51,364 bases of DNA from positions 1 through 51,364 of IMG/VR virus record IMGVR_UViG_3300011443_000004. One strand, written 5' to 3'. Of the stretch, positions 34,680 through 48,886 are shown piece after piece. Below the pieces are notes generated by a model. The model saw nothing but the letters and a program-made list of their open reading frames with translations. It was not told where the DNA came from and searched no databases. Both the position numbers and the translations under genes were made by a program. This stretch comes from a virus (taxonomy: Duplodnaviria > Caudoviricetes). Each line of letters starts with the position of its first letter. The stretch's first letter is position 1.

Positions 34680-34865
34680 CTATTCAGTTGGAACCCGGTG
34701 GCATCGCTTGCAGCAGACGACCCCGCCTAGTGTCTGCCACTCGTGCTTCAGTTGAGCGCACGCACGGTCTAGGCGTCTCTGCTCTGCCCATGAGTAGCCG
34801 AGAACCGCAGCGGTCGGTCCCATCATTAAGCCGGCGATAGCAGCGAGCAGTAGTAGCAGACTCAT
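34680..34865 (-). CDS. Small membrane/Zn protein
   Basis: Hydrophobic N-terminus; HEW..CKRC. Confidence 0.5.
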   Translation of the reverse strand: MSLLLLLAAIAGLMMGPTAAVLGYSWAEQRRLDRACAQLKHEWQTLGGVVCCKRCHRVPTE

Positions 34866-35515
34866 ACGTCCATGCCCTTCTTCCGCGCGTGGCGGATGAT
34901 GATTGCCCAGTTGTCGATAAGCTCGCGCGCCGTGAACGTGATGTCCCACATGAGTAGCAGTGGCCCACTCGGTAGCACGCCGAAGCCAGGGACCTCCGCT
35001 GGCGTCCACTGCCCGTGCCCGTTGATGAACAGCGCGACCAGCCTCGCGTGCTGCATCTTGAGCGGGAACCCGTAGCACAACATCTGACAGAACCACTTGT
35101 CGAACTTCTTCTGCTGCAGCCCGCCGCCGATGGTCATGCGCGTAGACTTGAACTCCCCTAGTCGCGTTTCCTCTTCGTAGAAGAAGTGGTCAGGCGAGAA
35201 GATGATGGAGCGCGGAGTGCCTACCGGAACGATGAGTCCTTCAGCGGTCGCTGCGAATTCGCCAGGCCGCGTGCTCGAACCCGTCATGCGCCGCGCGAGG
35301 TTGGCAGCGATAGACTCTTCGAGCGCTTCCTCGAAGGACGACCCATACTCCATCGCTACGACATCTGGCCCGCCAGGCTTCCCGAACCGCTTGGGGTCGA
35401 GGTCCTTGTAGAGGCTGTTGTAGATGTCGGACATGTGCAGGCCCGGGGTGCGCACATACCCCTCGGTCGGTGCGCCTATCTCCAGTCCGTGGTCTACTAC
35501 TGGCGTCAGAATCAT
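34862..35515 (-). CDS. PD-(D/E)xK exonuclease (Cas4/RecB-like)
   Basis: LHMSDI, SPD, EFKST, Q-x-x-x-Y. Confidence 0.78.
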   Translation of the reverse strand: MILTPVVDHGLEIGAPTEGYVRTPGLHMSDIYNSLYKDLDPKRFGKPGGPDVVAMEYGSSFEEALEESIAANLARRMTGSSTRPGEFAATAEGLIVPVGTPRSIIFSPDHFFYEEETRLGEFKSTRMTIGGGLQQKKFDKWFCQMLCYGFPLKMQHARLVALFINGHGQWTPAEVPGFGVLPSGPLLLMWDITFTARELIDNWAIIIRHARKKGMDV

Positions 35516-35524
35516 CGGGCTCCT

Positions 35525-36150
35525 TTACGAATGCGGTGGCGGCGCGCGTGCTGGGCGTCCCCTCTGTGACCTACTGGGATGAAGCTGCAGCCACCCCTAT
35601 CAACAATCACGGTAAACGTCTGTTCCAGATTCTTGCGCGCCGCCTTGTCGGTGGGGTGCGCGGAGCGGTGGACAACCGCCCCTCAGAGCGCCGACCCGCG
35701 CTCCTATGCACCCAAGTTGTGGCCGATGCCCCAGTGAAGGGGTTGACCGTCATGACGGCCTATCGTCGGACCCGCGATAACCCCAGGACCTAGCGGGGCT
35801 CTAGCTCGAATGGTGGACCGCCTCTCTTCGGCCCTCGCTTTGATTCCGATTCGCGCCTGCCCTTATCCCGAAGGAGGTTGGCTTCGTGTCGGTTCGCCGG
35901 GTATTAGCCCGCATGGTCGGTGTATCGCCCCGTCACCATGATAGCGCTGGATGCAAGACCCACCCAGTAGCCTACCGCCACAAGTGTTGAAGGGTTCCGG
36001 TGCGGCTCAGTTCCCCCTATAATCACGTCCATAGGTGATGACGGATGCCGAGTTGTTGTAGCAGGTGCAATCCACCCTGCTGCGCGACGGAGGTTCCGAT
36101 GTAGCCACACTGTCTACTGGGCGTCCCTCCGCGCGAGTGCGTAGGCGCTA
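35525..36150. ncRNA. Candidate large structured non-coding RNA (probably transcribed on the - strand)
   Basis: About 640 nt without a convincing ORF in a gene-dense operon; many perfect stems (see findings). Confidence 0.5.
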
Positions 36151-36152
36151 CC

Positions 36153-37094
36153 TCAGACTGCGAGGTTGATAACGCCCTTCTTGTCCTCGACGTTGACGAC
36201 CCACCCGCTCTGACGCGAGAGGAATTCGTCGGTGACGATGACCTTGCGGATAGCGTCCCGCTCGGCCGGTTCGAGGTTCTCCGCAACCGACTGCTTCACC
36301 ACGAGCGAAGGCAGCGACGTGCGCGCGAGCACGTTATCCTTCGCGTTGGCGAGCAAGGTCAGCAGCATTGACTCTGCCTGCGTGAACAACGCATCGCTGT
36401 CCACTTCGGCTGGCTTCGTCGCCGGCTTGGTAGCCGTCTTCGTAGCCGCCTTGGTCGCCGGCTTGGCCGCTGCCGTCTTCGCAGCAGGAGCCGCCACGGG
36501 CGCTTCGCCCAACAACGACGTGACAATGAGTCGGTCGTGGTTGTAGGACTTGGACTTGTCCTTCTTGTCCTTGCGCTTGCCCGCCGTCATGATGTCGGCG
36601 TCCGTGTAGGTCCGCGTGCCCGCCTGGTAGCTGCCTGCCTTCAGGTTCAGCGCCTTGCGTCCGCTCGCCATCTGCTTCGCCACATCCGGCTCCTTGCCGA
36701 ACACGACGCGGCGTCCGAAGAGGTTCTCGAAGTTCCGGAGGTTGCCCGCCAGGACCTCTTCCTCAGGGATGCCAGCCTCGACCAACGACGCCAAGAAGCG
36801 CTCTGCGTTCGAGCCCTTGGCGATGAGGTCGCCTTCCTTGTCCGATTCGAGCGTCAAGCCATCTTCGCTGATGCCCTGTCCGTCTTTCGGGTAGAGGAAG
36901 CCGGCTTCGAGGAACTGAGGCACCGGCTCAGTCGCTCCGTCCGCCAGGGTGTCAACCACGAGAGAGAACGTGGAATACGCCTTCGGCGTGCCCTTGTTCC
37001 ACTCCGTTGCCTCGAAGCGCAGTGCCGCGATGCTGCCCGGGGTGTTGTTGAGGTATCCGCCGCCCGCCGACTTGAAACGTCCTTCAAATGCCAT
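36153..37094 (-). CDS. Putative ssDNA-binding/recombination protein
   Basis: Strong codon bias, AK/P-rich linker, replication context, AGGAGG RBS. Confidence 0.55.
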   Translation of the reverse strand: MAFEGRFKSAGGGYLNNTPGSIAALRFEATEWNKGTPKAYSTFSLVVDTLADGATEPVPQFLEAGFLYPKDGQGISEDGLTLESDKEGDLIAKGSNAERFLASLVEAGIPEEEVLAGNLRNFENLFGRRVVFGKEPDVAKQMASGRKALNLKAGSYQAGTRTYTDADIMTAGKRKDKKDKSKSYNHDRLIVTSLLGEAPVAAPAAKTAAAKPATKAATKTATKPATKPAEVDSDALFTQAESMLLTLLANAKDNVLARTSLPSLVVKQSVAENLEPAERDAIRKVIVTDEFLSRQSGWVVNVEDKKGVINLAV

Positions 37095-44810: not shown

Positions 44811-44851
44811 TATCTACCTCCCCCGGTCCAATCCCGGTCCCCGGTCCCGTG

Positions 44852-44867
44852 TGCAAGCGGGATGCCA
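44852..44867 (-). promoter_or_regulatory. sigma54-type promoter of the leftward early operon
   Basis: TGGCATCCCGCTTGCA, 42 nt upstream of the GTG at 44810. Confidence 0.7.
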
Positions 44868-45028
44868 GGCAGGTTCACGGCATTGCACACCTGCCCGTAA
44901 CTGCCCGCAGCTTCCGCATAGCGCACGCTACTGTTCATCACTGCGCGCCACTTGCCGTCGCTGCCGGCCGTTGCACCCGCTTGCACCTACTTGCACACTC
45001 TGTCTTGTCGTCGCACGTCATGACAAGG

Positions 45029-45044
45029 TGCATACGCCGTGCCA
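45029..45044 (-). promoter_or_regulatory. Second leftward sigma54-type promoter
   Basis: TGGCACGGCGTATGCA. Confidence 0.7.
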
Positions 45045-45180
45045 GTGCAGTTCTGTGCAGGCCCGCTCGCCGGCCGCGCCAAAGTGTGCAATACCACGCA
45101 GAGCCTCGAAAGTCTAGTGCCGAACTGTGCAATGTCAGAATTTCTGGAGGACAGCGAGTGTCCACTATTGGGGAATGTCC

Positions 45181-45198
45181 TTTAGAATCAACAAGTTA
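45181..45198 (+). promoter_or_regulatory. IHF-like binding site
   Basis: TTTAG-AATCAACAAGTTA matches WATCAANNNNTTR. Confidence 0.65.
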
Positions 45199-45203
45199 GC
45201 GTT

Positions 45204-45219
45204 TGGCATAGCGCCTGCA
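45204..45219 (+). promoter_or_regulatory. Rightward sigma54-type promoter
   Basis: TGGCATAGCGCCTGCA; predicted +1 near the ATG at 45232. Confidence 0.7.
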
Positions 45220-45231
45220 GTATCTGTCAGC

Positions 45232-46074
45232 ATGGCAACGCTACAATCAATCAAGGCGCTACATGTTGGTGATACGGTAACGCTATTCGGACAGACCTTG
45301 ACCGTAACCGCGAGTGTGGACCTTGACGGTAAAGGCGTTGTAATTGCGCGAAAGGATAACCGCGTATACGCAAGGCGCGTCTACTTTGTTGAGCGTATCG
45401 GCGGGTATCGTAGCCGATGGTATAGGCTGGAGGCATAATGGTAACGCGCACCCTTTACACAATTGCACTCGTCGGTCTGTTCGGTTCGGTCAATGTTAGC
45501 GCGCAAGAGATAGCCGCAACAATTGCGGATATCCTCGCGCTACTTTCCTGAGGTATCAATCAATGAATAACGAAGTTTACATCCTGCCGAAGGCGCTATC
45601 ATCGGACGATAATTGCCCGCCGTTCGTGGCAGACGTTCAAACGCCTGCGTTTTACGCTGCAGACGATAGGCGCGCGCGTTGCGTCGTTTGCGCGTTGCCT
45701 GTAGAGCCTGCAGAATTCAACGTCTGCAAGGCGCACGCTGGCGTTACCTCGGCCGAATTCGGCGCAGCGCTGAAGGATAACCGATAATGCGCGCCTACAT
45801 GCTACATACTGAAAGCCTGCCGAACCTTTCCGCAATCGTCGCGCGCTATTTCAAAGGCGCTACCATCTTGCACGGTCTAGGCCTGTATATCGGGCAATTG
45901 GAGTCTAGCGCTACCGTCCTGATATACGCGGACGCAAACGCAGAGCATACCTCGATTGCGGCACTTGCGGACGCTATCGTGCGCGAGAATCGGCAAGATT
46001 GCGTGCTAGTCTCTGTCGCGCCAGTAACGCTCTACACTGCCACGCATGCCGGCCTCACAAAGGTAGCGCAGTGA
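45232..46074 (+). other. Four small ORFs of the compositionally distinct island
   Basis: 45232-45438, about 45438-45550, 45563-45787, 45787-46074. Confidence 0.6.
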
Positions 46075-47335: not shown

Positions 47336-47509
47336 GGTAACGCAATGGACCCACAAACGACGCGCGAGGATATCGCTGCAGGCGAGTGGACGATAGAGTG
47401 CGAAGTATGTGATACGACTACCGTAGTCGTCTGCAGACATGAACCTAATCAATGCCCCAACTGCGGCAGCGTTTTCGGGCATGAAGTAACGCCCGGGCGT
47501 ATCGACTAA

Positions 47510-48280
47510 CATCCTGCCAACTGGCGCGCTAGGCTACGGTCTGGCGCGCTATCCTTTCCCTACCCTACCCGATACCCTACCCGATACGCTCGAACGTCCT
47601 AGCAGGCGCAGGCGCGTTACCTCGCGCGTTAGCAGGCGCGTTAGCAGGCGCAGGCGCTAGGCTCTGCTCTACTGCTTACGCTCGAACGTGGCGCAGTATA
47701 TAGTCCCTTGCGTTACTTACCTACTGACTAGGACGCTAGGCACCGCCGCACCCTGCCAACTGCGCGCCTGAATAGTCCCCCCTGCCATATGCCAATCGGC
47801 TAGTATTGCGGTTAATATAGCGGTTAATTAAACGGCTAGTATCTAGGCCAAGTATCTGCAGGGTATTAGGCTGTGCCAACACTAGCTGGCATGAGGCAAG
47901 GCGGGCTCGAAGATAGTGTGCAATCCGGCCCGAATGCGTGCAAGTGCGTGCAGTTCCGTGCAGCAAGGGGGGGGGGACCCCCGCGAGCGATGGCCCTGGC
48001 CCCCCGGGGGCGGTGTCTGCGCAAAATTTTTGCAGAATTCGTCCCCTTAGGAGGACAATAGGCGGCGGGCTATGGGCGCGGGCACCGCCAATAGGCGCGG
48101 GCCTATCGACAGGAAGTGCTTGCGTTCGCACAGCAGCAGATGCTTGTGCTTACCCAGGCGGGGAAATGCCCAGCGAATCGCCGGCTAGGTGGGCAGAGGT
48201 CCGGAGTCGCGCGGCTCCCGGGCATGGACATGTCGGTCGCCGCTAGGGTGCAGGTATGAGCAGTATTGGATACTCCGAAT
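47510..48280. other. Non-coding region with short repeats and a G-run; probable genome-end/packaging region
   Basis: CCCTACCCGATA x2, AGCAGGCGC x3, a long G run at about 47967, GCAAAATTTTTGC; upstream of the terS region. Confidence 0.5.
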
Positions 48281-48286
48281 AATGCA

Positions 48287-48382
48287 TTACCTACTCTACT
48301 AGTAGGGGGGTATTTCGGTTACTGTAAAGTGTTGATTCTAAACACAATCAATTAACCGCGTGGAAAACTCGGTTAGTTTCCG
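48287..48382 (-). repeat. ~95 bp element, copy B
   Basis: Reverse complement aligns to 38065-38160. Confidence 0.85.
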
Positions 48383-48886
48383 CGCCCGGGTTTGGCCGAT
48401 GTCTTGGCCGATGTTCTGAAGCGAATAGAGGGCAGTTTTCGCTTCAATCGGCGCAGCAGGGCGAGCCCCACCGTCCATTTGAGCAGGACGTAGAGGCTGG
48501 CCCAGGCCATAAACCAGTAGTCGGGCGGGTTCACAGGCCCATCATCCGCTTGTTCAGGGCCTTGAGGGTCGGGACGCCGGCACTGAAGAGGGTGCGGGTC
48601 AGGGCACCGTTCGGACAGAGCCACCAGCGGTAGCCGACCAGCAGGTGGGTGCAGATGAAGCATTCGCCGCAGTGGGAGCAGCGATAGGGGTAGCAGCCTG
48701 CCTCGGTCACTTCGTGGAGGGTGCAGACTTTGACTCCCTGGAGCCGCGTGATGAATCGGAACAGACTGAGCATGAATGAATCTCCACAAGGGTTGCGAGG
48801 TCAGTGTCGGCAGCGCCGGCCGGCTTGCAGTCGCTGATAGTTCGACCGCAGCCGGGGCAGTAGAAGCAGAGCCATCTTGGGTTCAT
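48373..48886 (-). other. Three small leftward ORFs (two Cys-rich, one membrane)
   Basis: 48707-48886, 48531-48773, about 48373-48534. Confidence 0.45.

Follow-up and report, generated by a model that had tools for sequence, protein, structure and literature searches.

The DNA stretch analyzed here (the window, 51,364 bp) is a complete virus record with direct terminal repeats (IMGVR_UViG_3300011443_000004; Duplodnaviria, Caudoviricetes). Between two minus-strand open reading frames (ORFs) at 34862-35515 and 36153-37094, coding for a predicted nuclease (P0001) and for the protein P0002, it contains a non-coding gap of 637 nt (35516-36152). We tentatively interpret this gap, putting the chance at a little below even, as a structured spacer that is transcribed, consists of several modules and lies in a 'tRNA slot'; its core would mimic the acceptor of tRNA-Ala and be released by tRNA processing. 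The evidence is computational and thin, with two or three sequences for most modules and seven loci for the acceptor-like microhelix. Contigs of relatives are referred to by L numbers throughout.

The gap contains a microhelix with the features of a tRNA-Ala acceptor stem

The microhelix is located at 35834-35811 on the minus strand (G1 = 35834, A76 = 35811), consists of GGGCCG-AAGAGAGG-CGGUCC followed by ACCA, and is present in both the minimum free energy (MFE) fold and the centroid fold. Its pairs G1-C72, G2-C71 and G3·U70, followed by A73 and C74 C75 A76, constitute, as judged from the sequence, the identity set that the acceptor stems both of tRNA-Ala and of transfer-messenger RNA (tmRNA) carry. 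A search for GGG...UCC-ACCA helices with 6 or more bp, in which GGG and UCCACCA were fixed beforehand, covered every locus as well as the two strands of the window and gave 13 matches. Seven of these are located upstream of the nuclease gene, within the slot and on the strand of that gene (window, L030, L031, L066, L015, L062 and L003). Within 64 non-redundant upstream regions (47 kb) the motif occurs seven times in sense and not once in antisense orientation, and dinucleotide shuffles yielded 0.32 motifs on average and at most three (500 shuffles). As the window and L030 as well as L031 and L066 are close pairs, the seven loci represent about five independent lineages. No other part of the gap is as widely conserved as this 20-nt hairpin with its ACCA. 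The helix comprises 6 bp in the window and 6-9 bp in the six other loci, with loops of 4, 8, 33 and 57 nt, and the pairs 4-69 (C-G/G-C), 5-68 (C-G/A-U) and 6-67 (G-C/G·U) vary yet stay paired. None of the microhelices is situated within a long sense-strand open frame, and in L031, L066 and L015 the microhelix is found without the other modules of the gap.

Two further readings of the sequence were rejected. Interpretation of 'UCCACCA' as an attP core was ruled out, as its complement on the 5' side lies next to it and covaries with it. A terminator of the opposite strand was ruled out because it would contain a conserved A·C mismatch in place of the G·U and is not followed by a run of T.

The helix and the single-stranded A73 and CCA are the features shared with the tRNA-Ala acceptor and the tRNA-like domain of tmRNA. 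Natural tRNAs and tmRNAs are, however, whole molecules, whereas the microhelices of the window, L030, L031, L066 and L015 are devoid of T arm, D arm, anticodon and tag frame. A G3·U70 stem with ACCA as in a tmRNA acceptor is present at 35834-35811 and the tmRNA body is absent, the acceptor strands being 8 nt apart and neither ARAGORN (default settings) nor Rfam calling a tmRNA. ARAGORN reported no tRNA in the window either, and lowered thresholds gave only noise. A cloverleaf with anticodon arm and T arm is not found in the window; the gene inserted in L030 has it according to Rfam. A preliminary description of the segment, made from the sequence alone, had recognized no tRNA, tmRNA or intron, in agreement with ARAGORN and Rfam, but it overlooked both the microhelix with its ACCA and the presence of tRNA genes in the slots of relatives. 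Group I and group II introns were ruled out, since each flank is a complete gene of its own, in relatives too, and Rfam gave no intron match.

In the laboratory, acceptor-stem microhelices containing G3·U70 are classic constructs, by which the identity of alanine was shown to reside in the acceptor helix. We know of no natural free-standing acceptor-stem microhelix. In the gap and its counterparts, the helix that holds G3·U70 has 4 bp or more, and A73 and CCA, which the search required, are encoded in 7/7 loci. Provided that G3:U70 is present, a microhelix of 7 bp, and a tetraloop hairpin with as few as 4 bp, is charged by the alanyl-tRNA synthetase (AlaRS) of E. coli (PMC8583063). A literature search on this theme listed no acceptor-stem microhelix in a phage.

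Apart from the L003 version, two further elements of related form were noted. In L003 a tRNA-sized element of 75 nt (L003:3143-3217) combines a 9-bp G3·U70 acceptor helix and an encoded ACCA with one long arm and a T-arm-like hairpin that has a non-canonical 7-nt loop; it lies ~127 nt upstream of a normal tRNA-Phe gene and is called by neither ARAGORN nor Rfam. In L062 a second 'CCCC-ACCA-CAU' follows a G-rich hairpin at 300-335, ~250 nt downstream of the first microhelix, with no G·U at position 3. The element GGGCCG-CUCUU-UGGUCC-ACCA (L112:2087-2108), the sole non-coding match of a scan of viral contigs, belongs to an unrelated contig of 63.8 kb, where it is ~1.1 kb away from a tRNA-Thr gene on the opposite strand.

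Compensatory changes preserve pairing in the gap

L030, a metagenome contig of 1532 nt, is the only one of 70 metagenome loci that shares gap sequence with the window. The flanking coding DNA is 94.9% identical at the end of P0002 and 84.7% identical at the start of the nuclease gene. The gap itself is a mosaic in which near-identical blocks, such as 35716-35804 with 1 difference in 89 nt, alternate with replaced or unalignable segments, and the replaced segments again form a hairpin at the same place. L030 has an insert of 45 nt in the 5' part, a larger insert that replaces the hairpin at 35654-35713, an extra ORF of 87-121 aa before the nuclease that is absent from the window, and, mid-gap, a tRNA gene of 74 nt (L030:624-697) that starts 6 nt past the ACCA and encodes no CCA. 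This tRNA alone reaches the Rfam gathering score in L030 (51.4 bits), four weak chance matches falling below theirs. ARAGORN lists it as 'tRNA-???' with a two-base anticodon (cc), corresponding to a 6-nt anticodon loop.

Consensus folding of window and L030 by RNAalifold predicted 33 pairs in the 5' domain, 22 in the middle segment and 36 in the 3' segment, of which 5, 3 and 4, respectively, are changed on both sides and none is broken. As RNAalifold predictions, like model-fitted alignments, lean towards pairing and favor covariation, helices with compensatory changes were counted separately. Three helices of at least 5 bp are conserved in both sequences with at least two compensatory changes, compared to 0.28-0.45 in local column shuffles (P 0.003-0.01). 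Relative to column shuffles, which flatter the score, the whole-gap consensus fold has a z-score of -4.3 for the minus and -2.4 for the plus strand, and several conserved G·U pairs in stems fit only the minus strand, being A·C mismatches on the other. Conserved pairing in the gap is thus shown at the level of sequence comparison.

The stems and repeats listed in the preliminary description are all present in the sequence, and several of them are also maintained in L030. The inverted repeat I3, GGCGGCGCGC (35538-47)/GCGCGCCGCC (35635-44), keeps its pairing through two both-side changes, the stem GGGTGC (35654-59)/GCACCC (35708-13), which encloses GGAGCG/CGCTCC, is retained as the closing stem of the larger replaced insert, and among the hairpins at 36060-36135 the one at 36060-36081 has one compensatory change. 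CATGGT (35912-17)/ACCATG (35935-40) is likewise found in the sequence. GGGGTT (35739-44) and AACCCC (35779-84) exist as well, but their pairing is not supported by covariation, each arm having another partner in a model that also fits L062. The same holds for the long-range complementarity. CCCAGTAG at 35963 does have its complement CTACTGGG at 35571 and 36114, and CTGGGCGTCCC does occur at 35551 and 36117, but in L030 CCCAGTAG is changed to CUACCGGC and its partner to ACGAGGAG, the long-range pairings are not kept, 35961-35967 pairs locally instead with two compensatory changes, and the 5' copy of the 11-nt repeat is lost. The proposed switch by alternative long-range pairings is therefore not conserved in this one close relative, and nothing points to a ribozyme. 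'Multi-domain structured RNA' remains a fair description, be it one RNA or several adjacent modules, with several stems being kept by compensatory change.

A three-way junction recurs in a distant relative

A covariance model of the block 35716-35808 (R3) finds a match at 84-211 of L062 (31.1 bits, E 5.9e-6 in 308 kb; 26 bits with filters off). L062 is a distant relative with 34% nuclease identity, and the match is located upstream of its nuclease gene on the same strand. Across the window, L030 and L062 the three-way junction comprises 24 pairs, 6 of which have changes in both partners, and pairing is kept in 98.6% of the cells, in an alignment fitted to the R3 model, which helps the pairing score; these values were reached by 0/500 shuffles, and slid controls gave 0-2. 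In all three loci the junction follows the microhelix. The hairpin before the junction has another sequence but the same form in L062, GGGGAGC-(33 nt)-GCUCUCC-ACCA. No match of R3 was found in five complete related phage genomes. The junction represents a new three-way-junction RNA motif.

The gap is non-coding and occupies a variable slot

GC periodicity at third codon positions (GC3), which is strong in both flanking genes, is gone within the gap, each of the six frames contains 4-9 stops, and in a crude gene call the gap is the largest coding-free stretch of the minus-strand module. Its small ORFs have no match in PHROG and are only partly common to L030. One ORF fragment is shared by both sequences (residues 20-53 of a 68-codon ORF at 35904-36110), with the start and the end of the ORF differing. 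In the alignment of window and L030 this fragment has four amino-acid-changing codon changes and one silent change, and these are the same changes that compensate in the RNA stems. The gap is non-coding, as the preliminary description had proposed.

The setting within a minus-strand replication and recombination operon was also described correctly, and no known RNA family was matched. Rfam (4227 models) gave no match at gathering score in the whole window, and at E up to 10 the region 35300-36400 yielded only a chance match to sR14 (11.5 bits). In the same region neither a sigma-70 promoter nor an intrinsic terminator consensus was found, and motifs of the gap do not recur elsewhere in the genome beyond chance, as phage promoters would. 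With regard to transcription, one contig of a metatranscriptome run, 205 nt in length, is identical to 35919-36123, which is a weak hint of RNA.

The slot is flanked by the same genes in relatives, the order P0002-type gene to nuclease gene being kept wherever both are held. Its length ranges from ~130 to ~2200 nt, and its contents are small ORFs, non-coding DNA or tRNA genes, namely tRNA-Phe in L003, tRNA-Thr in L026 and L027, and the one inserted tRNA in L030. The locus defines a conserved 'tRNA/ncRNA slot' between two recombination-type genes of a little-known phage lineage. The relatives were collected by several routes. Nothing similar to the window was present in the phage record collection, either by DNA or by either flanking protein, and no relative was found among viral contigs when the nuclease was the sole query. 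A large protein collection includes 67 relatives of the nuclease, some on contigs of ~50 kb. Among the closest relatives of the two flanking proteins, P0003 and P0069 have identities of 76% and 48%, respectively. A search with an alignment of 31 nucleases led to 9 viral loci, all with at most 48% identity, and the 70 metagenome loci. None of the 9 viral loci has DNA similarity to the gap, and none of four conserved blocks, each scanned for as an exact pattern, had a match in viral contigs. A scan of genome contigs with a 22-mer gave three matches (L081-L083) in three metagenome-assembled genomes of different lineages. These share the same 24-nt exact match to 35741-35764 of the window inside a conserved bacterial gene (mutL-like by eye), have no flanking similarity and were discarded as coincidence.

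A second, unrelated set of conserved blocks, also a mosaic, was observed in the same slot in L035, L036, L041, L042, L044, L058 and L039. These relatives come from groundwater metagenomes, and the blocks, located upstream of the nuclease gene, share 75-96% identity in pieces of 30-330 nt.

Proposed function and its limits

Transcription, processing and charging of the microhelix RNA, as well as its role as a decoy, are what we infer. In the proposed mechanism the gap would be read on the minus strand together with the operon, and tRNA-processing enzymes of the host would treat the microhelix as a tRNA. With RNase P cleaving 5' of G35834 and 3' trimming halting at the CCA (35811), the operon transcript would be split and a small RNA with a free CCA end set free. 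With the full AlaRS recognition set, the freed RNA could be charged or serve as a tRNA-Ala acceptor decoy, and the modules on either side would shield the upstream message with a 3' structure and supply the nuclease message with a structured leader. As relatives have true tRNA genes in the slot, cutting by RNase P and 3' trimming of the operon transcript would have to occur there, and as the CCA-tailed helix is found in the same place as these genes, we read it as a substrate or mimic for tRNA enzymes. RNase P works without G3·U70, which AlaRS needs, and the element may therefore be termed a tRNA-Ala acceptor mimic. If the modules were mere processing signals, the finding would be a modest one.

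A bolder version appears improbable to us. It holds that a group of environmental phages encodes a natural 'microhelix-Ala' of 20-75 nt, anticodon-less and with an encoded CCA, that is excised by host tRNA enzymes, charged by AlaRS, has a non-decoding role and is embedded in a new multi-domain RNA of ~640 nt. If true, this RNA could be an alanine donor or a decoy for host factors or defense toxins by which tRNA acceptor ends are read; as a natural tRNA mimic of minimal size it would give a direct handle on how acceptor ends are used in infection, in processing, charging or the decoying of tRNA-targeting defenses.

Several observations weigh against the reading of the gap as a processed spacer with an acceptor mimic. 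The first three pairs, A73 and the CCA are constant in the seven loci, but this invariance is partly due to the construction of the search. The microhelix is absent in 57/64 loci and hence not essential to the phage group. A relaxed motif (any NCCA tail, any start) gave noise, with 44 matches in sense and 50 in antisense orientation. When viral contigs were scanned for the exact helix of the window/L031 type, 65 matches were obtained as compared to ~70 estimated by chance from an assumed collection size; 64 of them lie in open frames of at least 145 codons, some being terminator hairpins of the other strand, and none of the 65 is situated beside a relative of either flanking gene (tblastn). 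Moreover, a 6-bp helix that lacks a T arm is a poor substrate of RNase P. The metatranscriptome run that holds the contig from the gap equally holds one inside the coding gene of P0002, and the gap contig may be carried-over DNA.

The structural evidence has similar weaknesses. The number of conserved helices is marginal when compared to global shuffles (P 0.05-0.14), the domains represented by the covariance models R1 and R2 were found nowhere else, and support for the larger structure, consisting of two sequences (three for one motif), is thin. The folding energy is ordinary, too. The MFE z-score of the whole gap is +1.01 for the minus and +0.62 for the plus strand, with 18/20 and 16/20 shuffles, respectively, folding at least as well, and among 120-nt windows only 35600-35759 reaches a z-score of ~-2.2 to -2.5 (minus strand). 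Exceptional thermodynamic stability is thereby ruled out. The preliminary description had called the segment 'highly structured' and named an unremarkable folding z-score as refuting evidence. The z-score is indeed unremarkable, and the wording is justified only by the comparison with relatives; the Rfam scan that it had also suggested left the segment without a known family.

Alternative explanations of the gap

Instead of a single spacer, the gap may be a patchwork of independent small elements that accumulated in a recombination-prone slot, namely a stabilizing 3' structure of the upstream message, relics of tRNA genes, with the microhelix as a tRNA-Ala-like remnant, and a structured 5' leader by which nuclease translation is tuned. 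We consider this possible but doubtful. A patchwork would fit the variable length of the slot (~130 to 2200 nt) and its changing contents of small ORFs, tRNAs or non-coding DNA, the mosaic conservation relative to L030 with its replaced segments and insertions, and the microhelices that stand without the other modules in L031, L066 and L015. The tRNA-sized 75-nt element of L003 and a 51-nt version in L062 read like a reduction series, and the 3' hairpin always adjoins a ribosome-binding site, that of the nuclease in the window and that of the extra small ORF in L030. A mere relic, however, would not hold G1-C72, G2-C71, G3·U70, A73 and CCA constant alongside a changing loop and changing pairs 4-6, and microhelix, linker, hairpin and three-way junction stay together in the window and in the distant L062.

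The hairpins could also form in DNA, as parts of a replication origin, a single-strand initiation site or another site for a protein of the replication module. The neighboring genes, which code for an AAA_25 ATPase, a family A DNA polymerase and an ERCC4 nuclease of replication and recombination, are in line with such a role, and compensatory changes from G-C to A-T are strand-neutral. This explanation is nevertheless very unlikely. Iterons are lacking, the only direct repeat being the 11-nt pair D1 (copies at 35551 and 36117-36127), one copy of which is lost in L030, and the GC content of the gap (0.585-0.645) is similar to that of the flanks with no A+T-rich stretch. Read from the other strand, the conserved G·U pairs turn into A·C mismatches, and the consensus fold is better for the minus strand. 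For a CCA-tailed G3·U70 helix we know of no role in DNA.

We attach hardly any probability to a decaying remnant of a protein gene that has no present function. Small ORFs do occur in the slots of relatives, as does the extra ORF of 87-121 aa in L030, which the window lacks, but with 1 difference in 89 nt the block 35716-35804 surpasses the flanking coding DNA in conservation, the changes compensate in RNA stems while mostly changing amino acids in the sole shared frame, and motif enrichment is restricted to the sense strand.

A distant GOLLD/ROOL-type self-assembling large ornate phage RNA, with the tRNA of L030 in its variable linker, is the least credible explanation: a phage-encoded segment of 640-815 nt with many hairpins, conserved blocks and variable arms, a tRNA in one member (L030) and, in the 3' hairpin, a loop with the conserved palindrome GCUGCAGC that could kiss itself would suit it, but neither the gap nor L030 has an Rfam match at E up to 10, those families included, the family is tiny, and evidence for multimer contacts is lacking.

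Comparison with known RNA elements

In its working principle the proposed spacer with an acceptor mimic is closest to tRNA-like elements, and in its genomic habit to GOLLD and ROOL. MALAT1 mascRNA, mitochondrial tRNA punctuation and the tRNA-like structures of plant viruses are tRNA mimics within longer transcripts that recruit RNase P, the CCA enzyme or a synthetase. Those mimics reproduce the whole L-shape, whereas here only an acceptor helix is present, in the operon of a DNA phage. The species 1 and 2 RNAs of T4 are stable non-tRNA RNAs of ~120-140 nt among phage tRNA genes and are matured by tRNA-processing enzymes; the tRNA-like part of the gap comprises 24 nt. According to PMC12286853, GOLLD and ROOL are phage-encoded and located near tRNA islands, with tRNAs sometimes residing in the variable linker of GOLLD. 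The gap resembles them in being phage-encoded, hundreds of nucleotides long, rich in hairpins and located beside or around tRNA genes, a criterion taken from PMC12286853, with the L030 element even containing a tRNA. It differs in being shorter, in being represented by two to three sequences, in giving no match to the core of these families in Rfam and in showing no sign of oligomer contacts. By the Rfam and ARAGORN searches the element is thus neither a member of GOLLD/ROOL nor a tRNA or tmRNA.

Arrangement of the modules

Read 5' to 3' on the minus strand, the gap starts with a leader (36086-36152) that is poorly conserved in L030 (~37-57% identity in 30-nt blocks) and holds the 5' copy of the 11-nt repeat. 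It is followed by a predicted 5' domain of five hairpins (35944-36085; RNAalifold on window and L030) with the closing stem 36085-82/35947-44 and the hairpins 36081-76/36065-60, 36035-30/36021-16, 36015-08/35999-92, 35981-77/35971-67 and 35966-61/35953-48. G·U pairs favor the minus strand in this domain, the 45-nt insert of L030 falls in its junction, the metatranscriptome contig covers it, and the window and L030 are the only members found by its covariance model (R2).

Alignment and folds further suggest a small conserved hairpin, CGGG-CUAAUA-CCCG (35898-35911), next to which the hairpins at 35912-35940 and ~35846-35892 have their sequences replaced in L030 by other hairpins. Past the ACCA of the microhelix, the linker UUCGAGC (35804-35810), which reads CAUCGAGC in L062, is the site of the 74-nt tRNA insertion in L030. 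The conserved hairpin and the three-way-junction motif together occupy 35714-35808, with the hairpin at 35800-94/35785-79, an outer helix at 35772-64/35728-21 and inner hairpins at 35760-55/35750-45 and 35742-39/35732-29. The adjoining variable hairpin (35654-35713) is closed by GGGUGC/GCACCC and has a z-score of -2.1 in the window at ~50% block identity; in L030 the closing stem is kept as GGGGC/GCCCC around a larger unrelated insert.

The last module is a long irregular 3' hairpin of 107 nt (35538-35644) with a 10-bp base stem (GGCGGCGCGC/GCGCGCCGCC), which accounts for 34 of the 36 predicted pairs of the 3' segment and is separated by 12 nt from the ribosome-binding site that serves the nuclease gene. 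Its covariance model (R1) has the window and L030 as its only members. The palindrome GCUGCAGC (35581-35590), the core of a PstI site, is kept in both sequences and forms the tip of the innermost stem of this hairpin.

Flanking genes and genome context

The downstream gene P0001 (34862-35515, minus strand; 217 aa) has its start codon at 35515-35513, preceded by the Shine-Dalgarno sequence AAGGAG at 35520-35525. Although it has no match in Pfam or PHROG, D109, E121, K123, Q144 and Y148 are invariant in the alignment of 31 sequences, corresponding to the pattern D..ExK..QxxxY, and its structure model (predicted local distance difference test, pLDDT, 83.5) matches Cas4 SSO0001 (Foldseek, E 2.9e-5) as well as MGME1 and lambda exonuclease. 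Alignment and model thus identify P0001 as a predicted PD-(D/E)xK nuclease of the Cas4/MGME1/lambda-exonuclease fold.

The upstream gene P0002 (36153-37094, minus strand; 313 aa), the type of gene that always precedes the slot in relatives, is predicted from its translation to comprise an N-terminal beta-rich domain, a linker rich in Ala, Lys, Pro and Thr and a C-terminal helical domain. It has no match in Pfam or PHROG, and its model (pLDDT 80.8) gave only weak fold matches, to a winged helix (E 0.2) and to the OB-fold protein PrgE (E 0.28).

Structural genes are encoded on the plus strand up to ~27 kb, followed by a long minus-strand block that codes for a family A DNA polymerase, the ERCC4 nuclease and the AAA_25 ATPase (Pfam). 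The Pfam scan covered 28 ORFs, a part of the genome's ORFs, and no integrase was among them. In the GC3-based crude gene call two further stretches have no confident ORF, one at 47336-48530 (~1.2 kb) and one at 44811-45282 (~0.47 kb), the latter being where the genes switch from the minus to the plus strand; the whole-window Rfam scan is empty for both.

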